A DNA stretch of 36,094 nt from a candidate division WOR-3 bacterium (GTDB lineage: Bacteria; Hydrothermota; Tepidihabitantia; Tepidihabitantales; Tepidihabitantaceae), in the NCBI GenBank assembly GCA_039801225.1, contig JBDRUH010000013.1, positions 1 through 36,094 on the forward strand, read 5' to 3'. Positions 228-12,742 of this stretch are shown here, piece after piece. The translations under genes were made by a program, and so were the position numbers. Numbering within the stretch: the first letter of the stretch is position 1; every line of letters starts with the position of its first letter. The notes beneath the pieces were generated by a model. The model saw only the letters and a program-made list of their open reading frames with translations, did no database searches and had not been told where the DNA came from.

Positions 228-1817
228 ATGAGGAAAGTTTTTGTAACAATAGTAGTGGTGTGCTGTGTATTTGGCACACTAATAGCAGACACTTATGTAG
301 GTAGAGTTGACACAATTGGTGGAACGACCCATGACTGGCAGTTAAACGGACCAGCCGTGCGAGTGTTATGCAACTCGCCAGAGTATGGAGTTTATGCGCT
401 TTGGATGCATTCAGCAGAAGAGGCGCCTTTTAATGACCGAAATATGCGTCTTAACTTCTATTACTATCAGACGAGGAGTTGGGTATGGATTGACCCAGAT
501 TTTATGGGCTCCGGGATAAATGTTTATACTGAGCGGAGCGGATTTGGTAATTTGGCGGTGGAGCCAGGTTCAGGTGAGTGGATTGCGGTTACGCACCAAA
601 GATCTTCTGGTCAGGCGTATCACTCGGTGTTGGCGCACCAAAGCCTCGGCTTCTGTCCAGGACCAGATAGTTTTTACCAGCCCGTGGTGGCGGTTGGTAA
701 AAATGGCTGGATTCATATCGCAATGACCGACCAGTGGAGTGCAGAACGGGTTTTCTATTCCCGCTGCACCACCTGGTGTAACTGGACGGAGCCGATACTA
801 ATCGGCGAGCCGGGTGATATTAATTATAACATCACCGCCTCATTGGTAAGCGATAAGGTCGCTATTGTGTGGGTGAAGTCAATATTAGGTGGTGGAAGTA
901 TGGACTCACTTTTCTATCGCTATTCAACTAATGGTGGAACATCCTGGTCCGAACCTATCCTCCTGCTACCACCGCCAACTTTTGGCGGTGATACCGCTAC
1001 ATCCTTCTGCGAGTGGGGTCCGTTTCCCTATTATGACAAAAACGACCGGTTGCATATTGTCGTTCCGGTTATGCCGGTGGTAAATAGCAACAGGCAGACT
1101 AACCCGGCGGCAATCTGGCACTGGTGCGAGACAAATTTTCCTCAGTGGTCTTTGGTGCATCGGGCGGGTTGTGCTCGGGAAAATCTTAAGGGGTCTCCGG
1201 GGTATTATGCCACTTATGCCTGTCGTCCGAGTATTGGTGAAGGAAGCAGAGGAGTTCTCTATGTTACCTGGGAGCAGTTTGATTCGCTCAATGTTGAACC
1301 AGTGACAAACAGGTTACGGGCGGGTATCTGGCTTACCAGTAGCACCGATAATGGAGAGACCTGGCTTTCGCCATTAAGGCTCACACCGATTGACTCTGTC
1401 TCGCACCGTTTCCCCTGCATAATAGACCAGATGGTTTCGGGTGGTCCTGAGACAGATACGGTGGTTGTTCTTTATATGATTGATTCAATTGCCGGTTTTT
1501 ATGCTGTGTGGTATGAGGGACCAATGAGTCGGAATCCGATTGTTTGTCAGTGTGTGGCGCAAATGGTGGGGATTGAGGATAGCACTACACCAGCGGCTAA
1601 CAGCTCACGGGAAACAGCCACAATTGTCCGCAGCACGCTTTTTCTTAGCCCCAGGCTGTCAGCCGTCAGCCATAAGCCGGTTTTGCTCCTTGACATCTCC
1701 GGTCGCAAGGTCTTGGAACTTAAATCAGGTGCCAATGACCTCCGGCATCTTGCCCCGGGTGTATATTTCATAAAGGATGGTTCAGCAATAGAAAGAAAGG
1801 CGGTGATTACCAAGTAG
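228..1817 (+). CDS. Secreted Asp-box/BNR-containing beta-propeller-like protein with T9SS-like CTD
   Basis: SD AAGGAGG upstream; signal peptide; Asp-boxes YSTNGGTSW and SSTDNGETW; CTD LLDISGRKV...GVYFI...KAVITK. Confidence 0.75.
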   Translation: MRKVFVTIVVVCCVFGTLIADTYVGRVDTIGGTTHDWQLNGPAVRVLCNSPEYGVYALWMHSAEEAPFNDRNMRLNFYYYQTRSWVWIDPDFMGSGINVYTERSGFGNLAVEPGSGEWIAVTHQRSSGQAYHSVLAHQSLGFCPGPDSFYQPVVAVGKNGWIHIAMTDQWSAERVFYSRCTTWCNWTEPILIGEPGDINYNITASLVSDKVAIVWVKSILGGGSMDSLFYRYSTNGGTSWSEPILLLPPPTFGGDTATSFCEWGPFPYYDKNDRLHIVVPVMPVVNSNRQTNPAAIWHWCETNFPQWSLVHRAGCARENLKGSPGYYATYACRPSIGEGSRGVLYVTWEQFDSLNVEPVTNRLRAGIWLTSSTDNGETWLSPLRLTPIDSVSHRFPCIIDQMVSGGPETDTVVVLYMIDSIAGFYAVWYEGPMSRNPIVCQCVAQMVGIEDSTTPAANSSRETATIVRSTLFLSPRLSAVSHKPVLLLDISGRKVLELKSGANDLRHLAPGVYFIKDGSAIERKAVITK

Positions 1818-2094: not shown

Positions 2095-2781
2095 TTATAT
2101 CTGTTCCTCGTCGTAGAATAAATTAACGAACTGGATTTCTGGGAGCCGGTTTAGTTCGGCGATGAGTTCTTGTCCGCGATTTTTGTCTTTGAGCCGGACA
2201 TAGAATGAGAGTTCAATAGTTTCGGTGTCGCCGAGGGAGCGGACATTAATTGGGGTGAGTTTTGCGCAATGCCGATTTAATATCGGTTGATAGGGAGGTT
2301 CTTTATCACCTGAGGGTTTATAATTGAGTTGAAGGAGGTAGTCGTGACGCCGAGGAGTAGCGAACCGGGACCGGGAAAGGATAAAGACAATCAGTCCGAT
2401 GAAAAGGGTGGCGATAAAGGCGATGGCGTAGAATCCGACGCCGGCAGCCATACCTATTGCTAAGGCGAAGAATACATATACGATATCTTGGGTATTCTTG
2501 ACCGCATGGCGAAACCGGACAACCGATAACGCTCCTACCAGTCCAAATGCCCGTGCTAGATTGTTGCCGATGACCATTATCATCACCGCGGTACACATTG
2601 CCAAAAGGATAAGGGTGTTGGTATAAGAGACTGAATACCCTGGGCCGCGATAGGTGCGACGATAGAGCCAGCTGATAAAAATTCCGCAGAGAAGGGCGGT
2701 GCCCACTTTGGCAATCACCATCGCTGCGGTAAGAGGTAAAAGTCGCAGTTGCTGGATAATATTTCTAATTATTTCCATCAT
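2095..2781 (-). CDS. DUF4956-like membrane protein (MgtC-like TM region plus C-terminal soluble domain)
   Basis: IGNNLARAFGLVGALSVVRFR and FFALAIGMAAG motifs; several TM helices; adjacent to a VTC-domain gene, the usual partner. Confidence 0.85.
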   Translation of the reverse strand: MMEIIRNIIQQLRLLPLTAAMVIAKVGTALLCGIFISWLYRRTYRGPGYSVSYTNTLILLAMCTAVMIMVIGNNLARAFGLVGALSVVRFRHAVKNTQDIVYVFFALAIGMAAGVGFYAIAFIATLFIGLIVFILSRSRFATPRRHDYLLQLNYKPSGDKEPPYQPILNRHCAKLTPINVRSLGDTETIELSFYVRLKDKNRGQELIAELNRLPEIQFVNLFYDEEQI

Positions 2782-2787
2782 ATCAAT

Positions 2788-3666
2788 TCACCTCTCCTTT
2801 CCCTTTTTCAATGTCGGGCAGGTCATTAGGTCTGTTTTTAAGTTTGTCAGGTTGAGGTCTTGCTCAAAATCGGCGTGACCAATACCCAGAAGGAACTTCT
2901 TCGGCATCCGGTGCGCCTCAATCCCCAAGGCATATTTGGAGACCGCCAGCCGTTGCAAGTCAAAACGGGTAAGTAGCCATTGCACCCACCGGGGTAACGC
3001 CCCATAGAACTTGACCTCAAAGACAAATTGTTCGGGCATAACAAACTTCATCCCCCGGTCAATGTAGAGTGAATCAAGTGCAGGGTAGAGCCGGCTACGC
3101 ACATTTTTGTCAATGGTGAGCCGGAGTCGGGAGTCAAACCGACTGTAGAATGCCTCTCGTTCGTAAACGATAATAGCGACGGGCAACATCTTCCGGCGGT
3201 AGTAGTGGAACATAAATCGCAATAAGGCATCATCCGGCGAACTCTCAGGAGGTAAAAGCGGTAAAGGGGTAGTTCTTATATAACTGGCGAATACATCTTT
3301 GATCTGGTGCCACTTTACCGGCGCCCGATGTTTACCGATAAAATCACCATTTTTATACTTAATTTCCAAAAAGGCCGTATTTTCCCTATCCTCCTCGTTA
3401 TAACCCCGAATTCGCAGTTTCTTTTTGAACTGAAAGCCATCAAATTTCTCATAGTAACAGTCAAAGCGCCGGTTGTCGTAATATATGCTGCGCACGGTAT
3501 ACTGGTGGTTTGGTTGTTTTTCACAAAAACTGTCCAAGCAGACATAAGGTTTCATTGCTTTCCGCATTTCATTGAGTTGCTCCACCGGCACTAAAAATTT
3601 GTATTCCAGCCGTCCTGGGGTAATTGCGAACCGGGATAAAATTAGTGCATTGGGCGAAAGCGGCAT
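2788..3666 (-). CDS. VTC domain / polyphosphate polymerase domain protein (triphosphate tunnel metalloenzyme fold)
   Basis: RLEYKF, VRSIYYDN, KLRIRGY, FLEIKYK, YEREAF, RLTID, FEVKF and SKY motifs; no signal peptide. Confidence 0.88.
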   Translation of the reverse strand: MPLSPNALILSRFAITPGRLEYKFLVPVEQLNEMRKAMKPYVCLDSFCEKQPNHQYTVRSIYYDNRRFDCYYEKFDGFQFKKKLRIRGYNEEDRENTAFLEIKYKNGDFIGKHRAPVKWHQIKDVFASYIRTTPLPLLPPESSPDDALLRFMFHYYRRKMLPVAIIVYEREAFYSRFDSRLRLTIDKNVRSRLYPALDSLYIDRGMKFVMPEQFVFEVKFYGALPRWVQWLLTRFDLQRLAVSKYALGIEAHRMPKKFLLGIGHADFEQDLNLTNLKTDLMTCPTLKKGKER

Positions 3667-3668
3667 TG

Positions 3669-5225
3669 TTAGTGGGCAATGACGGTTTTTAAATTCGTCC
3701 GGGAATTGCCCGGTGATTTGTTCTGGATAAAGTAAATGCCACCGGGAAGACCGCTAATGTCATTAGTGCCGGCATTGAGTCGCATTACTTGTTCACCTGA
3801 GGCATTGAGTAAAAACTTGTTACCCTCGGTAGTAAATAGGACTTTTTTAGCAAAAATGGTTGACCGGTTAGAAGAATGGAGCGATGTTAGTGAACTTAAC
3901 TCTTCTAAGCCCACCGCCTCATAGCGCAGAGTGGCAAAATCGGTTCCGGTGCCATTACCTTCGCTATTACCGGTGATATAGACTCGGGTATTGTCAAGGG
4001 CAATCGCTATCGCCTCATCCCGCCGGCTTGCCGGTCCGTTATAACGATATACCCATTCTTCGTTACCATTAACATCATACTTCACCGTTGCATAGTCGTT
4101 GCGGGTCCCAGAACTATTACTACTGCCGGTAACATAAACATTTCCTTCATCGTCAACCGCAATTGCTTTGGCTTCATCATACCCCGATGCTGGTCCATCA
4201 TAACGCCGAACTAAAAGTTCAGTGCCAGCACCATCATACTTCACCATAACATAGTCACAATCACTGGTTATCCCCTGACTATAACCGGTTACATAGACAT
4301 TGCCATTAGCGTCGCAGGCTATGCCATTAGCCCAGTCAATGCTGTTTGCCGGTCCGTTGTAGCGCCGCTCCCACAGGAGGTCTCCGCTCAAACTGTATTT
4401 CAGAGTCGTAATATCAATACCTGAGTTGGTGCCGGTGCTGCCTCCGGTTAAATATAAGTAGCCATCAGGGGTGAGTATCATCGCCCGGGCTTCATCCTGC
4501 TCCTGTGCCGGTCCATTATAACGGCGGGTCCACACCGTATCGCCGGTGTTGGCGTTGAGGCGAATTGTAACATAGTCCCAGGTAAGAAAGTAAGGGTGGC
4601 CGCTGTTTCCGGCGACAAAGACAGCGCCGTTGGGTACTATTGCTATGCCAACCGCATAATCCTCATCAAGGGTTACGAATTTACTGGTCCATACTAAGGT
4701 GCCATTAGAGTCGTATTTCAAAACGATGAGGTCCCAACCGGTGGTATCGCCGCTGGCATAACCGGCAACATACACATATCCGGAATCATCTACCGTTACC
4801 ACCAGACCGAAGTCATTGCCTCCGGCAGGACTGTCGTATATAGCGGTCCAGAGCGACTCGCCTTTAGTGTTATAGACCGTAGTGACAATATTGGTGAACA
4901 GGTCCGCATCAGTACTGCCACCAACAACTATAACTCTATCATCCTTTACGACAATCGCCCGCGCCTCGTCGTTACTATGAGTTGCGCCATCATACCGAAC
5001 TGTCCAGATAGATTCACCCTCCGGGCTGTATTTGATTATCACTATATCGTTGCCGTTGCCGGTCGCCCAACTCGTTCCAGTTACATAGACATAACCGGAA
5101 TCATCTATGGCAATGCCACTTACCAAATCTTCGCTGTTTGCTGGTCCGTTATAGCGCGCTACCCAGGTCTGGCTTAATGCTGGTGCAAACGAGGATAAAA
5201 CGGCTACTATGAATAAAGTTCGCAT
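3669..5225 (-). CDS. SBBP-repeat beta-propeller protein with T9SS-like CTD
   Basis: Signal peptide; about eight W-x-x-R-Y-N/D-G-P...IAxDxxGNVYVTG repeats; CTD ...GTNDISGLPGGIYFI...KTVIAH. Confidence 0.85.
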   Translation of the reverse strand: MRTLFIVAVLSSFAPALSQTWVARYNGPANSEDLVSGIAIDDSGYVYVTGTSWATGNGNDIVIIKYSPEGESIWTVRYDGATHSNDEARAIVVKDDRVIVVGGSTDADLFTNIVTTVYNTKGESLWTAIYDSPAGGNDFGLVVTVDDSGYVYVAGYASGDTTGWDLIVLKYDSNGTLVWTSKFVTLDEDYAVGIAIVPNGAVFVAGNSGHPYFLTWDYVTIRLNANTGDTVWTRRYNGPAQEQDEARAMILTPDGYLYLTGGSTGTNSGIDITTLKYSLSGDLLWERRYNGPANSIDWANGIACDANGNVYVTGYSQGITSDCDYVMVKYDGAGTELLVRRYDGPASGYDEAKAIAVDDEGNVYVTGSSNSSGTRNDYATVKYDVNGNEEWVYRYNGPASRRDEAIAIALDNTRVYITGNSEGNGTGTDFATLRYEAVGLEELSSLTSLHSSNRSTIFAKKVLFTTEGNKFLLNASGEQVMRLNAGTNDISGLPGGIYFIQNKSPGNSRTNLKTVIAH

Positions 5226-5228
5226 ATT

Positions 5229-6773
5229 TTACTCCTTTACAAGTTTTTGAACCACTACACCACACTTACCCTTTTTAGTAAGGTCTTTTATTTCTATTCG
5301 GGCAATATACACTCCTGAGGGCATATCAGGGCTCGGGATAAAGAAGGTTTCATAGGTTCCGGCATTTTTTTTCACATTATAAACAAGAGTGCTTATCAAT
5401 TTGCCGGCAACATCATAGATGGTAATGCCCACCGCACTCCGAGTGGCGAGTTGATAACGGATGGTGGTGGAATGCCGGAATGGGTTGGGAACACATTGGG
5501 TAAAAGGATATAGTGATGAAGGGCTTTCGTTTGTTTCTTTTATCTCTGATAAAAAGTCCCGTGGGTATTTCATCGCCCGACCAATCTGACCGCCGGCATT
5601 ATAGTTCCAAACCACCTGTCCGTTTGAATCAACCTCCACAAAACGTCCGGTAGTTCCAAGAATGGCAAAGGTGTTGCCATTGGGTAGACGGTAAGCACCA
5701 CCCAGATGCTGGGCATAAAAGGAGCCGGGATTTGAGTAGGACCAGGTTGGGTTACTTGGTCCGAACGCAGAATCGGAGTGGATGTAATAATGGTCATTTG
5801 AGTCTAATGGTGGGGTAATCTGAATTATCTCCGAATAGTCATTGGAATTTCCTGGTCTATCGCCGTTGTTGAGCACAATGATATCGCCGGCGCCCGGCAT
5901 TCCGGGGCGAATCCAATTGGCACCATGGACAACAAAAAAACGCTGGTCATTGGAATTTCCCCGATCATAGTTCTGCGGATTACCCCAACGGTAGATGATA
6001 TCACCGCCTTTACCGTGCCGGCCACCGGTATGACCGCGCGCCTCCTCAGTTGTTGTTGAATGGTCAATCACATAGATTTCGTGCAGGTTATGCGAGGTCA
6101 AAATAATCTCATCCCGCTCCGCATTATAGTCAATTGTGTTGCAGTGCATCCAGTCGCCACCCATAATTGAACCAAGGTTGATGTCAAGCAGTTCCGGGTG
6201 TTCACTAACCACGCCGTAGTTTGGCTTGGTGGAGTCAACATCCTGAATCAGATGGTCCCAGAAATGCCATTCCCAGACAACGCTGTCGGTTTCCGGGTCA
6301 TATTCTATTACTTCATCAGGCCAGATGTCGCTGTAAATATTCTGTCTACCCATTGCCCGCGCCTCTGCTGCAGTTTTTCTCTCCCAGGAGATAAGAAGGA
6401 TATGACCATTGGGCATAGGGCAGATGTCATGGTGCTGCTGATGGTTAGCATTTGACCAGATGAAACTCTTAATAATGTTGCCGTTCCAATCATACTGTTG
6501 AATCAGTCCGCCATAAGCGGCACCGCGCATTACCGCACCGGAATAGACATCAGTGCGCCAGATGGTGCTGTCAGGTAGAAGATATGCCATATAGGCACAG
6601 GTGTAATTTGATGACCAGGTATTAACCCGCTGACCTGCAGTGTCAATCAGATAGGTGGTCTTGCTGTTTATTGTCCCATAGAGGGTTAAGCCGTCAAACA
6701 CTTCAGCGTTTATTCCCAATGGTAGGCACAAGGCGAAAACGATTACAGTTAAGGGCGCTTTTTTATGCACCAA
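5229..6773 (-). CDS. Arylsulfotransferase (ASST)-like protein with T9SS-like CTD, copy 2
   Basis: QHHDI, WEWHFWDH, DWMHCN, IYVIDHSTT, IIYRWGNP, RLPNGNT motifs; signal peptide; CTD PNPF...IYDVAGK...SGVY; TTG start. Confidence 0.8.
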   Translation of the reverse strand: MVHKKAPLTVIVFALCLPLGINAEVFDGLTLYGTINSKTTYLIDTAGQRVNTWSSNYTCAYMAYLLPDSTIWRTDVYSGAVMRGAAYGGLIQQYDWNGNIIKSFIWSNANHQQHHDICPMPNGHILLISWERKTAAEARAMGRQNIYSDIWPDEVIEYDPETDSVVWEWHFWDHLIQDVDSTKPNYGVVSEHPELLDINLGSIMGGDWMHCNTIDYNAERDEIILTSHNLHEIYVIDHSTTTEEARGHTGGRHGKGGDIIYRWGNPQNYDRGNSNDQRFFVVHGANWIRPGMPGAGDIIVLNNGDRPGNSNDYSEIIQITPPLDSNDHYYIHSDSAFGPSNPTWSYSNPGSFYAQHLGGAYRLPNGNTFAILGTTGRFVEVDSNGQVVWNYNAGGQIGRAMKYPRDFLSEIKETNESPSSLYPFTQCVPNPFRHSTTIRYQLATRSAVGITIYDVAGKLISTLVYNVKKNAGTYETFFIPSPDMPSGVYIARIEIKDLTKKGKCGVVVQKLVKE

Positions 6774-6784
6774 TTTCCCCCTTT

Positions 6785-8356
6785 TTATTTTGTCATAATT
6801 ATCTTTCCCATTACTGGCCTATTACTTTGTTTAGGGTTGTTGACTATCAGTTGAAGAAAATAAACACCGGTTAGATTTTGTCTTTCCGGTAATGACACCT
6901 GAAATTGGTGCTCTCCGGCAGGATATTCTCCCTTTTCCGTCATTGCGAGCGGAAGCGAAGCAATCTTCCTTCCCAGCGCATCATAAATCAATAATGAGAC
7001 CTTTCCCCTAATAGGCAAATTAAACCCGATGGTAACCGGTTCGCCGGAACGGTTAATTCGTTTGTAAATTAATCGCAAATTAGGAGGCTGGGCGGTTAGT
7101 TCCTGATTTATACTGGAGAGGTAATTTCGGGGATACTTGAGTGCGCGTCCGTTCCAGGAGCTTGTCGGACATTCCCAGACAACCTGACCTTCATAAGTTA
7201 CTTCAAATAGTCGTCCGCTGACCGCCTCAGTGATAAAAGTGTTGCCGTTGGGCAGGCGGTAGGCGCCGGACATATGACCGGAGTAAAATGTCCCTGGGTT
7301 AGAGTATATCCAGGTTGGCGCAGCAGGACCAAATGCCGAGTCTGGGTGGATATAATAGTGGTCGTTGGAGTCCAGAGGTGGAGTTATTTCAATGACTTCT
7401 GAGTAGTCGTTATTATTACCAGGACGGTCGCCGTTGTTAAACACCAGGATGTTGCCCGCGCCGGGCAAACCGGGTCTGATCCAGTTAGCACCGTGGACAA
7501 CAAAAAAGCGCTGGTCGGTTGAGTCTCCTCGGTCGTAGTTCTGCGGATTGCCCCAACGGTAGATGATATCACCACCTTTACCGTGCCGGCCGCCGGTGTG
7601 CCCCTTTGCCTCCTCGGTGGTGGTGGAATGGTCAATCACATACAACTCATTGAGAAAATGTGAGCAGAAGACGATTTCATCCCGTTCTTCGTTGTAGTCA
7701 ATGATATTGGCGTGAATCCAATCACCATACATAAATAAGGTACCGAGATTTATGTCAATAAGTTCCGGGTGCTCTCTTACAACCCCATAGTTAGGTTTGG
7801 ACGGGTCAACATCCTGAATCATATGGTCCCAGACATGCCACTCCCAGACAACGCTGTCGGTTTCCGGGTCATACTCAATAATCTCCTCTGCCCACATATC
7901 ACCATTGATATTTACCCGTCCCATCGCCTGTGCCTCAGTTTGGGTCTTACGGTCCCAAGAAAGAAGGAGAATATGACCGTTGGGCATCGGATGAATGTCG
8001 TGATGCTGCTGGTGATTTGAGTCGGACCAGACGAAACTTTTGATGATGTTGCCATACCAGTCGTAGTGCTGAATCAAGCCGCCATAAACCCCACCCCGCA
8101 TTACCGCCCCAGAGTAAACATCCGGACGCCAGATGGAACTGTCGGGCATCAAGTAAACCACATAGGCTGGAGTTGTGGCGAAATTCCAGGAATGGACAAC
8201 CTGACGGTTGGTGTCAATAAGCGATGCGGTCCGACTGAACACCGGGTTGGAAATGATTAGCCCGTCAAATACCTCCGCAGACGCGTTGGTGGGTAAAGAA
8301 GTCAATCCGAGAATTAAAGCCGGGGCAAACTTTAAAAGGTAATTCTTAAATAGCAA
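6785..8356 (-). CDS. Arylsulfotransferase (ASST)-like protein with T9SS-like CTD, copy 1
   Basis: Same motifs as copy 2 (QHHDI, DWIHAN, YRWGNP, RLPNGNTFITE); CTD IYDALGRKI...GVYF...KIIMTK; TTG start after AAAGGAG. Confidence 0.8.
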   Translation of the reverse strand: MLFKNYLLKFAPALILGLTSLPTNASAEVFDGLIISNPVFSRTASLIDTNRQVVHSWNFATTPAYVVYLMPDSSIWRPDVYSGAVMRGGVYGGLIQHYDWYGNIIKSFVWSDSNHQQHHDIHPMPNGHILLLSWDRKTQTEAQAMGRVNINGDMWAEEIIEYDPETDSVVWEWHVWDHMIQDVDPSKPNYGVVREHPELIDINLGTLFMYGDWIHANIIDYNEERDEIVFCSHFLNELYVIDHSTTTEEAKGHTGGRHGKGGDIIYRWGNPQNYDRGDSTDQRFFVVHGANWIRPGLPGAGNILVFNNGDRPGNNNDYSEVIEITPPLDSNDHYYIHPDSAFGPAAPTWIYSNPGTFYSGHMSGAYRLPNGNTFITEAVSGRLFEVTYEGQVVWECPTSSWNGRALKYPRNYLSSINQELTAQPPNLRLIYKRINRSGEPVTIGFNLPIRGKVSLLIYDALGRKIASLPLAMTEKGEYPAGEHQFQVSLPERQNLTGVYFLQLIVNNPKQSNRPVMGKIIMTK

Positions 8357-8368
8357 AACTTTCTCCTT

Positions 8369-10642
8369 TCACTTTGTTACCAACAGTTTTGCGGTTTCTT
8401 CCGCTAAATTAATTGAAGTTTTGGTCTTGAATTGGAGTCGGACAAAATAGACGCCGGCGGAGAGTCTCTCTTCATCAAGGCGGAATCTTCTCTCATAACT
8501 GCCCGCTTCCTGCTTGCCATTAAATAAAGTTTTCACCAATCTGCCGGTTACATCAAACACGCTAAGCGATACTTGAGACCGTTCTGGGAGGTTGTAACGG
8601 ATAACACTCAAATCCACCAATGGGTTGGGAAAGATATTGAGTAGCGACCGGGCTGGTTTTGTGTTTCTATTCTCAGCGAGACCGAATAGGCTGTCGTTTC
8701 TTGCCATAAATGTCGGGTTCATCAGGGTAAAAGAGCCAACTCCGTTTGGATACCGTCCAAAACTAATGTCAGCAGTTTGCGGACCAAAAACTACCTGGTC
8801 CAATCTATGTCCGTCTGGGTCTATTAGAATGAGGTGCTCACCATTTTTATTCAAAGTAAAACTGGCGTGCAACCCGGGTTCGGAAACCTCACCATCTGCC
8901 CAGACAATCAGATACCATCCTGCCGGAATTGTTACATCAGGGAATTCCCACTGGTAGGGGTTGAGCGAATCGTCACTTAGAAAATAACCATCAAGGGAAA
9001 CTGGAGTTGGGTTGTTGTTGAACAATTCAATCCAGTCCTCATACTCGCCATTAGGGTCGCGGGCAGTTCGGACATTGTCCGCCATAATCTCGTTGATAAC
9101 CACCTGACCAGCAACCGGCAGTATCAGGAATTCATGCTCGGCACGCTCGGGATAAAACGAACCCGCAGAGGAGTTTTCGGCATAAATATAATAATGACAT
9201 TCACCCGGACCTAAATTAACCGAAACGCCATAAACCCCATCACCTGCTGTCCCATCGTTGTGCTGACCATCATCAAACATCGGGATGGAGTAAAACTTAA
9301 GAGCAGGATTCTGCCGGTAATTGAGAAAGACCGAGTCTGAACCAGTAACCTGGGCACTGAAATCAACCGTTGTATTGGGTGCAGGCTGGGCAGGTGAACA
9401 GGAAACATCTTCAATCACCGGTGCGGTTGCTTGAAATTCAGGCAAAGAAAGAAGAAAATTGACCCTTGGGTTCATAAGTTCGGTTAAACCTACAATCGCT
9501 AAAGGACCTGAGCCAACCGACCGGGTAATGTTGTTCAAAAAGTCATTATAGGTATAAAACTTGTTCGGGTCAGCCTGGACATAAGAGTCAATCAACTCCT
9601 GAATCTCTTCTGCCCGCTCCTGATAACGATTGTTCGTGAACCAGTCGCTGATGATGGTCTTCATATGGGCAACAAACATTCTGCGATACCTCGGGTTGGA
9701 TAAAACTTTGCTGAGAATCGGATAGTTTGGGTCGTTCAGGCGCAGAAAGGGGTCAAGTTGCTGCATCTGGCTTAATGTCAACTGACCGGTGCCAATCAAA
9801 TCCCGGAATGCCCCGAAGTTCTCATTCAAATCCCAGATGATGGGATTGAATCGGGCTGAGGCATCGCGGTAGAGATAGAAGTTCTGCGCCATATTTATCG
9901 GCGCATCCAGATTGACCATCAGAATGTCAAATGCCAGCATCCAGAGATGCTGGTCAATATTCAACACCTTTTCGGTATAAGGAGTGAAGTTATTAAGCGT
10001 ATCAAGGAAATCAATCAGTTTATCCCAGCCCGAGTCTGATTCCAGTTCAAAATAGTCAAGGTATGGGACTGAGTCCGGACCCAAATACTTCCAACCAATC
10101 ATTGGTACATTGTCCTTCATCTGGCCCTTGAACCGAGCATTCTCATCACAGTAGTAATGTTGACGCATAAATAGTTTATCCACATCCTCGCAGTTTGTGT
10201 AAAGTCCGATAAGGGTGTCATTAACATAGATATTGGCAAAGTTTGCTCTGCCAGCGGGCATATAGTCTCTGGCAATCTCGTAACTCAAAACTTCGCGCAC
10301 AAAACTGGGGTCCTTATAAACATTGGCAAGCCTGAGTGTGCCGTGCCCTTCAATTGTCTGACCGGCGATGATGTAATCCAGTTTGATATTGAACGGATTC
10401 TTGCGCCTAGATGGATTATAGGAACTTTTCCCTTTGTATCTCACACCAACCGAGTCAAAGCGCCGGTTATTGATAACCGCATCACCTATCAGCCTGCCCT
10501 TTTCACCTGCCGAATAAAGGCTGTCAAGAATTTCATCCCAGTTGGGCTGGTCAAAATAAAGCCTAATTTCGTTAATCTGGTTTAAGTCAAAAAAGCCTGC
10601 TATCACTACTGAAAACACCAGTAGAAGTCCGCACCTTTTCAT
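8369..10642 (-). CDS. CotH-family kinase with lamin-tail domain and T9SS-like CTD
   Basis: CotH motifs VGVRYKGKSS, PFNIKLD, REVLSYEI, GLYTNCEDVD, NFYLY, IIWDLN; MFDDGQHNDGTAGDGVYG loop; LTD VINEIMADN...DWIELFN; CTD FPNP...VFDVTGRLV...GVYF. Confidence 0.88.
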   Translation of the reverse strand: MKRCGLLLVFSVVIAGFFDLNQINEIRLYFDQPNWDEILDSLYSAGEKGRLIGDAVINNRRFDSVGVRYKGKSSYNPSRRKNPFNIKLDYIIAGQTIEGHGTLRLANVYKDPSFVREVLSYEIARDYMPAGRANFANIYVNDTLIGLYTNCEDVDKLFMRQHYYCDENARFKGQMKDNVPMIGWKYLGPDSVPYLDYFELESDSGWDKLIDFLDTLNNFTPYTEKVLNIDQHLWMLAFDILMVNLDAPINMAQNFYLYRDASARFNPIIWDLNENFGAFRDLIGTGQLTLSQMQQLDPFLRLNDPNYPILSKVLSNPRYRRMFVAHMKTIISDWFTNNRYQERAEEIQELIDSYVQADPNKFYTYNDFLNNITRSVGSGPLAIVGLTELMNPRVNFLLSLPEFQATAPVIEDVSCSPAQPAPNTTVDFSAQVTGSDSVFLNYRQNPALKFYSIPMFDDGQHNDGTAGDGVYGVSVNLGPGECHYYIYAENSSAGSFYPERAEHEFLILPVAGQVVINEIMADNVRTARDPNGEYEDWIELFNNNPTPVSLDGYFLSDDSLNPYQWEFPDVTIPAGWYLIVWADGEVSEPGLHASFTLNKNGEHLILIDPDGHRLDQVVFGPQTADISFGRYPNGVGSFTLMNPTFMARNDSLFGLAENRNTKPARSLLNIFPNPLVDLSVIRYNLPERSQVSLSVFDVTGRLVKTLFNGKQEAGSYERRFRLDEERLSAGVYFVRLQFKTKTSINLAEETAKLLVTK

Positions 10643-10651
10643 AACATTACA

Positions 10652-11647
10652 TTATCTTTTCCTTCCACTCCGGTTTGATTTTTTCGGTGTTGGTGTAGGC
10701 ATAAACTCCCAATCTGCGCCACCATCAGGGATTCTGCCATATGATGTATCTGGATGCTGGGGACCAAAACTGATTGTATCTATTATCAGGGAATGAACAC
10801 CTTTAATTTCATATAGACCAATTTGCTCCCCTTTGGCTGCACCAAGGTTGAATGCGGCGTGCAACTGCCCCTCCTGAGGCTCATTGTCCGCCCAGACAAG
10901 AATAAAGCCCTTTGCCGGAATTGTTACATCAGGGAATCTCCATTTGTCCGGTATCGCAAGGTCATCGGTGAGGCTCATCCCTTTGAGATTAATTCCGGAA
11001 TCACTTCCATTGTAAATCTCAATCCAGTCATCGTAATCACCCGCCTCATCGGCAATCGTTGTCTGGTTTGACGCAATAAACTCGTTGATGAAAAGGATTC
11101 CCTTAAGGGTAGAAATACCTGAACAGTTGGGTTCGCCAGGGGTGGGGAAAGGTGTAATCCCCCAGGTGCCGCCATCAGGTAGCCTGCCAAAGGATGTGTC
11201 CCTTGCCTGCAAAGAATAGGTTAAGGTGTCAACTATTCCCAGTCGGTTGCCATCGGTCCAGTAAAGCCCAATCTGTTCGCCCGAGGCGTTAAGTTTGAAA
11301 GAGGTGTGTAACTTTCCCTCTTTAAACTCGCCATCACACCAGATTAAGAGATAGCCCTTTGCCGCAATAAAGGTATCAGGAAAGACCCATTTCATTGGCA
11401 CGGAAAGGTCATCGGTCAGATACATTGCCCGCAGACGAATTGCGCTATCCGCATCATTGTAAAGTTCCACCCAGTCATCGTAATCACCCGCCTCATCGGC
11501 AACTGTCCTGCGGTTTGATGCCATAAACTCGTTGATAAACAGAATGCCGGCAAGAGGCGCCTTGACCGGTGCTGCCGATTCCGCCCCGCAACCACCAGCA
11601 ATAATAAATATGCTTAATAAAGCCATCTGGAAAATGCGCTCCTTCAA
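10652..11647 (-). CDS. Lipoprotein with two tandem lamin-tail domains
   Basis: Lipobox-like IAGGC; two copies of LFINEFxASN...DEAGDYDDWxE...LTDDL...SxGRxPDG...PTP; TTG start after AGGAGG. Confidence 0.82.
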   Translation of the reverse strand: MKERIFQMALLSIFIIAGGCGAESAAPVKAPLAGILFINEFMASNRRTVADEAGDYDDWVELYNDADSAIRLRAMYLTDDLSVPMKWVFPDTFIAAKGYLLIWCDGEFKEGKLHTSFKLNASGEQIGLYWTDGNRLGIVDTLTYSLQARDTSFGRLPDGGTWGITPFPTPGEPNCSGISTLKGILFINEFIASNQTTIADEAGDYDDWIEIYNGSDSGINLKGMSLTDDLAIPDKWRFPDVTIPAKGFILVWADNEPQEGQLHAAFNLGAAKGEQIGLYEIKGVHSLIIDTISFGPQHPDTSYGRIPDGGADWEFMPTPTPKKSNRSGRKR

Positions 11648-11659
11648 ATTGCCTCCTTT

Positions 11660-12616
11660 CTAAAAACTCACCTGAGCCTGAAAAAGTCCTTTTATCCCCG
11701 GCGTCTTTGTTTCACCGAGTCCGGTTAAGAAGTTTGCCTTAATTTGAAACTGGGGGGCAGGGTGCCAGTTGAATCCTATGGTTAATTCGGTCAGAGAACC
11801 AACCGCACCTTTATGGTCCGGCACAATATGCTCCACTCGTAAACAGGGCTCAAACGCTTTTATCTGATAGCCGGCTTGAACATAACCACCAAGCATAAAA
11901 TCGCCGGGATGAGAATTGCCGGCAAGAACCTCACCATTAATCTGTGCCTGCCTGGACTTAAAGGAAAAATCGCCACCAAAGGCATTAATCAACCTGCCGG
12001 TTGCCGAATCATTCCGCTGGGTTGCGTTCAAGCCCAAAATCAGCCCGCGCAATACCCGGATGGTCAGACGCTCGGCAAACTGCTTGGCATTGTTGTCATC
12101 ACGCGCCAGCCTGCCCTTATTGCCATTGTAAGCACCAAGTGAGTATTCAATCGGCAGACGGTCGGTAAAAATTTTCCCCTCTATCGCCAGCCCGATATCC
12201 CTGCCAGGATAACGATAATCATTAAACATCTCGTTGGTCATTCCGCGTTCAATCAAGAGTAGCCGGTTTGCCGGTGTCAACTCCTCAAGGCTGAAGTTCA
12301 CCTTTCTTCTGCCGGCAAAAAGGATAAAACCGGGTGAAACCCGGTAATAGCCAAACGCATCCTTTATCTCTAAATTAAGTTCATCAGCACCGATTTCCAG
12401 TTCGGCACCAAACCGCGGTTGGGTGTATTCAGCCTTGAATCTTACTCGTCGGAGGATAAAACTGTATCTTGGATAAACCCCGGTGCGGAAATCAGAGATA
12501 AACTGGGTGTGAACATAACCACCGATTCCAGCTGCATCCCCCTTTTTGGCAAAAACTGGTGTCAGTAATATCAGGATTAAGAGCAGACAACAGAAAAAAC
12601 CTTTAGTTACTGGCAT
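11660..12616 (-). CDS. Outer-membrane porin, phosphate-selective porin O/P-like
   Basis: Signal peptide; GGYVHTQF, F-x-LRRVR, FSLEEL, RDIG motifs; amphipathic strands; C-terminal Phe (QAQVSF). Confidence 0.72.
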   Translation of the reverse strand: MPVTKGFFCCLLLILILLTPVFAKKGDAAGIGGYVHTQFISDFRTGVYPRYSFILRRVRFKAEYTQPRFGAELEIGADELNLEIKDAFGYYRVSPGFILFAGRRKVNFSLEELTPANRLLLIERGMTNEMFNDYRYPGRDIGLAIEGKIFTDRLPIEYSLGAYNGNKGRLARDDNNAKQFAERLTIRVLRGLILGLNATQRNDSATGRLINAFGGDFSFKSRQAQINGEVLAGNSHPGDFMLGGYVQAGYQIKAFEPCLRVEHIVPDHKGAVGSLTELTIGFNWHPAPQFQIKANFLTGLGETKTPGIKGLFQAQVSF

Positions 12617-12621
12617 TGATA

Positions 12622-12650
12622 ATTATAGAGAATCAGACTACTGTTGGCAA
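12622..12650 (-). promoter_or_regulatory. Sigma70-type promoter of the porin-CotH-VTC operon, probably leaderless
   Basis: Minus strand TTGCCA-17 nt-TATAAT, ATG 5 nt further on, no SD. Confidence 0.7.
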
Positions 12651-12742
12651 GATTTAAGCAAATCTGAACAGAAAGATTATCAATCATTTATAAAAATTGG
12701 ATACATAAATCTGAAAAATCCTGCGTCCCAAAACTAACAATA

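Follow-up and report, generated by a model that had tools for sequence, protein, structure and literature searches.

The window analyzed here, i.e., the whole 36,094-nt stretch of contig JBDRUH010000013.1 from a candidate division WOR-3 bacterium, contains an operon of eight genes (positions 2095-12616, minus strand) that encodes a VTC-domain enzyme, a DUF4956 membrane protein and an exported CotH kinase-fold protein together with five further envelope or secreted proteins. The operon is real and its genes are conserved in order, and the core of the system to which it belongs is a VTC gene followed by a DUF4956 gene, usually with a gene for a MacA-like adaptor ahead of them. Our preferred reading, held tentatively and with a little less than even confidence, is that this operon represents, in WOR-3, a widespread VTC-DUF4956 envelope module that would make and export polyphosphate (polyP), accompanied by an exported CotH protein. 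An earlier note on this DNA had proposed that VTC and DUF4956 make and export polyP, that a porin carries it across the outer membrane, and that CotH uses it to phosphorylate the cell surface. This mechanism is reasonable in outline, its key step, the use of polyP by CotH, is conjectural, and the note counted too many genes in the core: the porin, LTD lipoprotein, arylsulfotransferase-like (ASST-like) and SBBP genes are lineage-specific accessories that lie outside the conserved system.

The eight open reading frames (ORFs) are arranged head-to-tail, and from g1 to g8 they encode an outer-membrane porin, an LTD lipoprotein, the CotH protein, two ASST-like beta-propellers, an SBBP beta-propeller, the VTC enzyme and the DUF4956 protein. 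The gaps between them are, in the same order, of 12, 9, 12, 11, 3, 2 and 6 nt, and AGGAG-like ribosome sites precede most of the genes. Eight co-oriented genes with gaps of 2-12 nt had been described in the earlier note, and the ORF coordinates and the measured gaps agree with this description. The families that it had named were likewise recovered for all eight genes when hidden Markov model (HMM) searches were run, and every assignment exceeds the curated Pfam cut-off.

The conservation of the core was analyzed with a VTC alignment scan, in which one genome per species was retained and the best 80 of 540 confirmed relatives were kept; these 80 loci cover at least 12 named phylum-level groups. 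DUF4956 was found directly downstream of VTC in 78 of the 80 loci, and the gap between both genes had a median of 12 nt (range -59 to 150 nt, 76 measurable pairs). When the 10 kb around VTC were searched with iterated HMMs, CotH and LTD genes were each detected in 35 loci, ASST-like genes in 10, SBBP genes in 7 and the porin in 5. The nearby CotH gene lay on the strand of the VTC locus in 33 of 34 measurable loci, and in 16 loci it was located within 150 nt of DUF4956. Furthermore, 43 of the 45 loci without a nearby copy came from genomes that carry CotH elsewhere, often in several copies, which brings the total to 78 of the 80 genomes.

An independent sample of 301 genomes, evenly drawn from the phylum of one Bacteroidota locus, was then used for a co-occurrence analysis; the sample includes related genomes, and this kinship would inflate any P value. 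VTC was present in 48 genomes, DUF4956 in 91 and CotH in 117. All 48 VTC genomes had both CotH and DUF4956, whereas CotH was found in 69 and DUF4956 in 43 of the 253 VTC-less genomes. CotH accompanied DUF4956 in 87 of 91 genomes, was present in 30 of the 210 genomes that lack DUF4956, and occurred in 39 of the 43 genomes that have DUF4956 and no VTC. Hence, the tie is one-sided, with VTC always found with CotH in this sample and CotH often found without VTC, and DUF4956 is a broader partner of CotH than VTC is. The explanation that CotH is merely common in these phyla was discarded, as the base rates of 69/253 and 30/210 are far below 48/48 and 87/91. Among 14 control genomes, VTC and DUF4956 both matched the same three, and CotH matched those three and Bacillus subtilis; Bacteroides thetaiotaomicron is among the genomes with all three families. 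The co-occurrence of VTC, DUF4956 and CotH, which the earlier note had described as frequent, is therefore upheld by VTC-DUF4956 adjacency in 78 of 80 loci and by CotH in 78 of 80 and 48 of 48 genomes; the wider co-occurrence for which it had suggested a neighbourhood survey holds for these three families and does not extend to the porin (5/80), the ASST-like genes (10/80) or SBBP (7/80).

Within the WOR-3 lineage, VTC was present in 11 of 24 genomes of the same family and in none of 16 genomes from other families of the order; genomes of one family are kin, and hence they are not independent observations. The gene order was identical in the 11 VTC-bearing relatives as far as their contigs reach (7 loci are complete), namely porin, LTD, CotH, one to three ASST-like genes, SBBP, VTC and DUF4956. 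All 11 VTC-bearing relatives carried CotH, as did 1 of the 29 others, a fragmented genome (G024), and a distribution that matches that of VTC in this way indicates that the cluster was gained or lost as a unit. The same order was observed in 12 close metagenome loci reached via a porin search, and its recurrence in these loci and in the 11 relatives argues that the linkage is more than chance.

The VTC protein is encoded by g7 (2788-3666, minus strand) and is predicted to be a cytoplasmic, Vtc4-like triphosphate-tunnel enzyme, which makes it a candidate polyP polymerase. It belongs to the Pfam VTC family (PF09359; 135.3 bits, cut-off 23). A profile of 16 bacterial VTC sequences matched the Vtc4 structure 3g3q with an E value of 6.2e-13, and the inactive paralogues Vtc2 and Vtc3 scored far lower with the same profile. 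Residues K23, R85, R87, E101, K103, Y168, R170, R182, E217, K219, S243 and K244 of g7 were invariant in 72 sequences. Their Vtc4 counterparts, counted in native numbering along the alignment of the profile with 3g3q, are in the same order K200, R264, R266, E279, K281, Y359, R361, R373, E426, K428, S457 and K458. Except for E279 and K428, which were added from the alignment, these residues form what we take to be the catalytic tunnel list of Vtc4 given by Hothorn 2009. The first strand of the enzyme reads E-Y-K, against T-T-K in Vtc4. Vtc4 R264A/R266A/E426N is a catalytically impaired triple mutant used for cryo-EM (PMC9911596). We consider it rather likely that g7 makes polyP. No match to PPK1, PPK2 or Ppx-GppA was found in the metagenome-assembled genome (MAG), although its completeness of 88.8% leaves these absences unproven.

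The comparison with the yeast VTC complex (Vtc4/Vtc3/Vtc1; 3g3q, 7ytj, 8i6v) reveals both likeness and difference. g7 has the same catalytic tunnel domain, and its link with a membrane protein, seen in the bacterial loci as fixed gene adjacency, has a parallel in yeast. However, the yeast complex has an SPX sensor domain and DUF202 membrane helices, whereas g7 is a stand-alone enzyme of about 290 aa that carries neither. No Pfam match to SPX or DUF202 was obtained with g7 or g8, as g7 matched only VTC and g8 matched DUF4956 and, weakly, MgtC. The operon thus falls outside the VTC complex proper, although it may function in a similar way.

The last gene, g8 (2095-2781, minus strand), encodes a predicted inner-membrane protein that scored 62.6 bits with DUF4956 and 22.3 bits with Pfam MgtC, the latter below the cut-off of 31.4. 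Its AlphaFold2 (AF2) model (pLDDT 83) consists of five helices and a C-terminal ferredoxin-like (ACT/MgtC-C-like) domain, which matched the MgtC C-domain 2lqj with Z 9.0 (rmsd 3.0 over 83 residues) and 7qa5 with Z 8.4, and also ACT domains. The family score, the multi-helix membrane part and the ACT-like C-terminal domain thus identify g8 as a DUF4956/MgtC-like protein; it resembles MgtC in this architecture and differs from it in the sub-threshold MgtC score and in its gene context. For the membrane part no solved fold was retrieved, as Foldseek gave none at E≤0.001 and VIA-align matched the C-terminal domain only, apart from two weak helical rows (Z 7.5-7.6). Basic loops are located at residues 40-50, 90-96 and 138-147, and by the positive-inside rule these loops and the ACT-like domain are predicted to be cytoplasmic. 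A complex prediction for VTC and DUF4956, run with 1:1 copies only, gave a score of 0.01 (mark 0.32), which weighs neither for nor against an interface. We lean, by a narrow degree, towards DUF4956 translocating polyP.

An outward direction is suggested by the gene that most often precedes VTC. An ORF of about 355 aa was found ahead of VTC in 66 of the 80 loci and immediately adjacent to it in 65, and its Pfam matches were to HlyD_3, all of them sub-threshold. The AF2 model of this protein (pLDDT 89) gave 72 Foldseek matches at E≤0.001, led by MacA of MacAB-TolC (E 8e-16) and followed by EmrA, AcrA and MexA; as modeled, the protein folds as a periplasmic adaptor of the MacA/EmrA type. MacAB-TolC and EmrAB-TolC are thus the nearest known arrangement, with an adaptor of this fold preceding VTC-DUF4956 in the 66 loci and with a TolC-like OEP gene after DUF4956 in one locus (L095); in contrast to those systems, the related loci have no ABC, MFS or RND pump, and DUF4956 stands in the pump position. 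The adaptor encoded with an inner-membrane component, which defines tripartite efflux systems, is present in these 66 loci and absent from the window operon. A hidden adaptor among the eight operon proteins was ruled out, as an adaptor HMM gave no match at E≤10.

The 14 loci without adaptor are six of the WOR-3/Stahlbacteria type, six from Anaerolineae, and the loci L059 and L087. None of the six Anaerolineae VTC-DUF4956 loci (L046, L051, L058, L077, L086 and L103) has the adaptor gene. Anaerolineae are not known to have an outer membrane, and the absence of the adaptor would fit a cell of this kind. In another locus (L029, positions 9062-9919), a WOR-3-type cluster with three ASST-like genes carries a short adaptor-like ORF of 286 aa before VTC, so that porin and adaptor are not mutually exclusive. 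In VTC-less genomes, all six loci that were fetched contained DUF4956 followed by an HlyD-like adaptor and then by a 425-aa ORF of no known family, and hence the DUF4956-adaptor pairing persists without the polymerase. In these loci (L157-L162, e.g., L161, positions 6000-8923) the setting is conserved and also includes DUF6580 and YceI genes; from their gene content, they look like a polymerase-less form of the module.

In the window operon the first gene, g1 (11660-12616, minus strand), encodes an outer-membrane porin of 318 aa that has a signal peptide and belongs to the phosphate-selective porin O/P family. The Porin_O_P match (46.5 bits, cut-off 20.9) is partial and covers residues 78-186 of g1 and profile positions 63-163 of 370. 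Phosphate selectivity in this porin family comes from an arginine ladder and a lysine cluster. In a six-sequence alignment that includes g1, eight basic residues were invariant. A metagenome scan with a narrowed porin alignment (A7, the alignment A6 being too divergent) yielded 50 loci. The 12 close relatives, with identities of 40% or more, were all located in the same cluster as g1, and the LTD gene followed the porin in 11 of them, the contig of the twelfth ending there. This partner is g2 (10652-11647, minus strand), a lipoprotein with two LTD (lamin-tail) domains (Pfam LTD 86.4 bits, two stretches), the lipobox Cys of which was kept in 11 of 11 aligned homologues.

Among the distant porins, 16 loci (one duplicated pair included) extend 1.5 kb or more upstream of the gene, and in 5 of the 16 DUF4956 or VTC was found directly upstream, in arrangements that differ from that of the window. 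L152 has the order CotH-DUF4956-VTC-porin, and its porin gave a full-length Porin_O_P match of 298 bits. In L136 (8379-12102) and L151 (3069-7153) a STAS-DUF4956 fusion, Porin_O_P and CotH stand in a row and no VTC gene is present; the same order of STAS-DUF4956, porin and CotH was detected in L150 by our own HMMs alone. In L120 (7113-10843) a thymidylate kinase-Ppx/GppA domain III-HD fusion is followed by a DUF4956-like gene and a Porin_O_P gene. Three annotated others among the distant porins adjoin PhoX, PhoU or a PhoR/B-like pair. The Pho contexts and the repeated DUF4956/CotH links indicate that this porin family is phosphate-linked and was recruited to DUF4956/CotH systems more than once. 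Compared with OprP/OprO, g1 exceeds the family cut-off and has distant relatives in Pho-regulon contexts; however, it is shorter, its profile match is partial, and it is tied to LTD, CotH and VTC and not to pst/pho. That the porin is the outer-membrane path for polyP is a possibility to which we give slightly less than even weight. Together, the adaptor that 66 of 80 loci have ahead of VTC and the phosphate-type porins linked to DUF4956, VTC and CotH support the export side of the mechanism first proposed.

The exported CotH protein, g3 (8369-10642, minus strand), consists of a signal peptide, a CotH domain (Pfam, 144 bits), a choice-of-anchor X domain (NCBIfam), an LTD domain (62.8 bits) and a C-terminal domain of the type IX secretion system (T9SS; Por_Secre_tail, 35.9 bits). 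Its D246 was kept in 46 and its D271 in 48 of 48 VTC-linked CotH domains. Both residues align with two aspartates of B. cereus CotH (5jd9) that are 23 residues apart; this spacing is shared with D228 and D251 of B. subtilis CotH, and we infer that D246 and D271 are the equivalents of the latter. In B. subtilis CotH, the D228Q and D251A variants are inactive (PMC7821199). By its domain and by both of these predicted catalytic aspartates, g3 is assigned to the CotH kinase family, and since both are kept, it is probably an active phosphotransferase. The spore-coat kinase CotH of Bacillus (5jd9/5jda) shares with g3 the CotH domain and both aligned aspartates, although g3 resembles 5jd9 only weakly in sequence (E 5e-6). 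It differs in that it uses ATP and acts inside the mother cell, whereas g3 is an exported protein with LTD and T9SS domains; in addition, the B. subtilis control genome gave no VTC or DUF4956 match, unlike the window operon.

Secreted propellers occupy the middle of the operon. g4 (6785-8356, minus strand) and g5 (5229-6773, minus strand) encode ASST-like beta-propellers, paralogues with 61% identity, that scored 59.5 and 64.9 bits with Pfam Arylsulfotrans (cut-off 24.2); g5 has a T9SS tail (Por_Secre_tail, 32.4 bits) and that of g4 is divergent. g6 (3669-5225, minus strand) encodes a secreted SBBP beta-propeller (Pfam SBBP, 94 bits). An HMM for the T9SS C-terminal domain built from the lineage scored 97 bits with g3, 75 with g5 and 51.5 with g4. 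In g6 only a signal peptide was found, as no T9SS tail was detected at E≤10 with the lineage HMM, nor any in Pfam or NCBIfam. The sequences therefore identify g3, g4 and g5, and not g6, as T9SS cargo; of the four tagged secreted proteins listed in the earlier note, CotH and both ASST-like proteins stand and the SBBP protein does not. The T9SS translocon SprA is present in the genome (SprA_N 103 bits, in a 1877-aa frame), as are 70 ORFs with a T9SS sorting domain and 15 SBBP-propeller ORFs.

No solved structure was found for the ASST-like proteins by sequence search, and their profile matched E. coli AssT (3elq) with an E value of 0.043 over 27 residues, designed propellers scoring higher. Seven histidines (H114, H115, H174, H210, H228, H238 and H283) were invariant in 16 ASST-like sequences. 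An invariant H-S-T-T-T-x-E-A stretch (H238-A245 of g5, alignment A5) was also observed, and its Ser/Thr-x-Glu pattern resembles Fam20C sites; the stretch may be a target of CotH or part of an active site. A third ASST-like gene lies elsewhere in the genome (C57, positions 202-1788). In a Zixibacteria locus (L054, 2467-7382) and an Ignavibacteria locus (L067, 10603-15532), VTC, DUF4956, two ASST-like genes, an FGE-sulfatase-like gene and CotH follow each other in this order, so that the ASST-CotH link extends beyond WOR-3.

Other neighbours were observed around the core in individual loci. SdiA-regulated/phytase-like propellers follow DUF4956 in a cluster of 9 loci. A PPK2 gene is located one or two genes downstream of VTC-DUF4956 in L035 (13998-14864) and L047 (11532-12386), with an ion-channel gene after each; a PHO4 transporter gene lies near VTC in L071, and in L037 DUF4956 and CotH are separated by a gene for a carbohydrate-binding protein (Cthe_2159).

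Our preferred reading can be set out in four steps. By homology with yeast Vtc4, cytoplasmic g7 would polymerise phosphate from nucleoside triphosphates into polyP. The MgtC-like g8 would then move the chain or product across the inner membrane, as the fixed adjacency of both genes and the efflux adaptors found elsewhere suggest. From its context, the phosphate-type porin g1, paired with the LTD lipoprotein g2, would provide the outer-membrane path, whereas most other double-membraned lineages would use a MacA-like adaptor in its place. Finally, g3, g4 and g5, which carry type IX tails, and g6 would act at the cell surface with or on the phosphate polymer, through a chemistry that the gene content suggests. 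In its least supported form, this last step would have CotH take phosphoryl groups from polyP so as to modify surface proteins or glycans. That CotH uses polyP as a donor seems doubtful to us, and the full proposal, in which a VTC-DUF4956 synthase-translocase drives polyP out through a dedicated adaptor or a phosphate-type porin and CotH uses it instead of ATP for extracellular phosphorylation, is distinctly unlikely; within that proposal, the histidine-rich ASST-like propellers may act as phospho-histidine transferases in this lineage.

Several points weigh against the preferred reading. Enzymes of the triphosphate-tunnel (TTM) fold also include triphosphatases and cyclases, porins are passive and impose no direction of flow, and DUF4956 is unrelated to the DUF202 helices that form the channel in yeast. 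The genome has a second Porin_O_P-like gene elsewhere, and the family may simply be the general porin of the lineage. The adaptor HMM matched none of the eight operon proteins, and the only adaptor look-alike in the genome is a conventional MacA encoded next to MacB and an ABC ATPase. Furthermore, the porin, ASST-like and SBBP genes are missing from most of the 80 VTC loci. DUF4956 occurs without VTC in 43 of its 91 genomes and CotH in 69 of the 253 VTC-less genomes, which indicates that neither strictly needs VTC and that exported CotH does not generally depend on it. MgtC, the nearest named relative of DUF4956, is cited as a regulator and not a transporter (PMC12345266), and B. subtilis CotH works with ATP (PMC7821199).

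In a first alternative, the polyP that VTC and DUF4956 deliver to the periplasm or surface would itself be the end product, i.e., a polyanionic layer, a binder of cations or minerals or a phosphate reserve, and would not serve CotH as a donor. LTD, CotH and the propellers would then bind, anchor or trim polyP, and CotH would obtain its phosphoryl groups elsewhere or not be a kinase. All the evidence for synthesis and export (the adjacency, the tunnel residues and the adaptor) is shared with this alternative; the VTC-less genomes with CotH agree with it, and the phytase-like propellers of the 9 loci could be its trimming enzymes. That bacteria do place polyP outside the cell is also indicated by a 2026 preprint, in which extracellular polyP in the B. 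cereus group is independent of PPK1/PPK2 and its source is unexplained (PMC13484657). However, VTC was accompanied by CotH in 48 of 48, 11 of 11 and 78 of 80 cases, which points to a functional tie tighter than co-location at the surface, and the two aspartates kept in CotH make it probably an active phosphotransferase. On balance, we consider the end-product explanation fairly unlikely.

Synthesis of polyP itself is given up in a second alternative, in which DUF4956 with the adaptor or porin exports another cargo or is an MgtC-like regulator, VTC is a triphosphatase, a cyclase or a signal enzyme that controls DUF4956, and the CotH substrates are phosphorylated by another route. It draws on the 43 DUF4956 genomes without VTC, 39 of them with CotH, on the adaptor kept in 6 of 6 VTC-less loci, on the ACT-like, ligand-sensing domain that DUF4956 has as MgtC does, and on the STAS-DUF4956 fusions beside porin and CotH in L136 and L151. 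It is unlikely, as the polymerase-tunnel positions of Vtc4, among them the ones that the inactive Vtc2 and Vtc3 have lost, are all invariant, VTC occurs always with DUF4956 (48/48), and the phosphate-type porins and the PPK2 and Ppx-like neighbours indicate phosphate chemistry. A Pho-type scavenging system, in which the porin imports phosphate or pyrophosphate freed by secreted enzymes and VTC-DUF4956 stores polyP in the cytoplasm or periplasm, would fit the PhoX, PhoU and PhoR/B-like neighbours of the porin family, PPK2 and PHO4 near VTC in L035, L047 and L071, and VTC as the only polyP synthase candidate of a genome without detected PPK1 or PPK2, but it is very unlikely, because no secreted operon protein belongs to a known phosphatase family in Pfam, the window has no pst/pho genes and the operon is flanked by housekeeping genes, the MacA-type adaptors and the OEP gene of L095 point outward, and the model does not account for the strict tie to CotH.

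The surroundings of the operon were also analyzed. A sigma-70-like promoter candidate, TTGCCA-17-TATAAT (12622-12650, minus strand), matches 11 of 12 positions and is the top site of the region; it ends 5 nt ahead of the g1 ATG. Promoter-like sites overall are at chance level (19 found vs 18.0 expected), as are the terminator-like sites counted in the same scan of the region. A single promoter, as the earlier note had it, is thus plausible from the best site ahead of g1, but the region as a whole is not enriched in such sites. No Shine-Dalgarno motif precedes the g1 ATG, unlike most other operon genes, and with a -10 hexamer 5 nt before the start codon, the sequence suggests that g1 may be translated from a leaderless or nearly leaderless mRNA. 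Upstream, on the same strand, lie the housekeeping genes panC, panB, deoxynucleoside kinase (dNK) and HPPK; downstream, a convergent ORF of 529 aa (228-1817, plus strand) matched no Pfam family at E≤0.001. No pst, pho or pel genes are present within the window. The host genome is a 1.5-Mb MAG in 72 contigs. This DNA was found in 8 rows of public sequencing runs from 2 studies, all labelled hot springs metagenome; 3 of these 8 rows contain at least half of the words sampled from window positions 2700-12690, and none of the 8 is an RNA run.

The association of these families has precedents in the literature. According to PMC7112168, cotH, a "polyphosphate polymerase" and DUF4956 (with DUF4832) are accessory genes of Gram-positive pel loci. 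In S. intermedius, which has the trio as SIR_1592-1594, deletion of its CotH and DUF4956 genes lowers Pel and aggregation (PMC12345266). Published lists also place VTC, a membrane protein and CotH together in NELoc-2 of C. perfringens (PMC2879425) and a DUF4956 gene beside a DUF2490 gene in B. thetaiotaomicron (PMC10434189). The pel loci share with the window the three linked families and the export of CotH, but the WOR-3 host is double-membraned and the window has no pel genes; the window adds to the trio a phosphate-type porin, an LTD lipoprotein, T9SS tails and ASST-like and SBBP propellers. In a literature search that covered few subscription journals, no paper was retrieved in which the bacterial VTC-DUF4956 pair is given a function, the bacterial VTC protein is assayed or export is proposed. 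The VTC/DUF4956/CotH trio is already published without a function, and the WOR-3 operon is a new, lineage-specific variant of it. The B. cereus preprint attributes VTC4 to fungi and some protozoa, with no homologue reported in B. cereus (PMC13484657).

In this context, the VTC-DUF4956-CotH set is a genetically testable candidate for both non-PPK polyP synthesis and polyP export in bacteria. The porin that occupies the usual position of the efflux adaptor in WOR-3 narrows the range of species that could be exported. The set is also a candidate answer to the question of what phosphoryl donor serves secreted kinases outside the cytoplasm and, if true, a CotH powered by polyP would be a general answer to how bacterial extracellular phosphorylation is powered.

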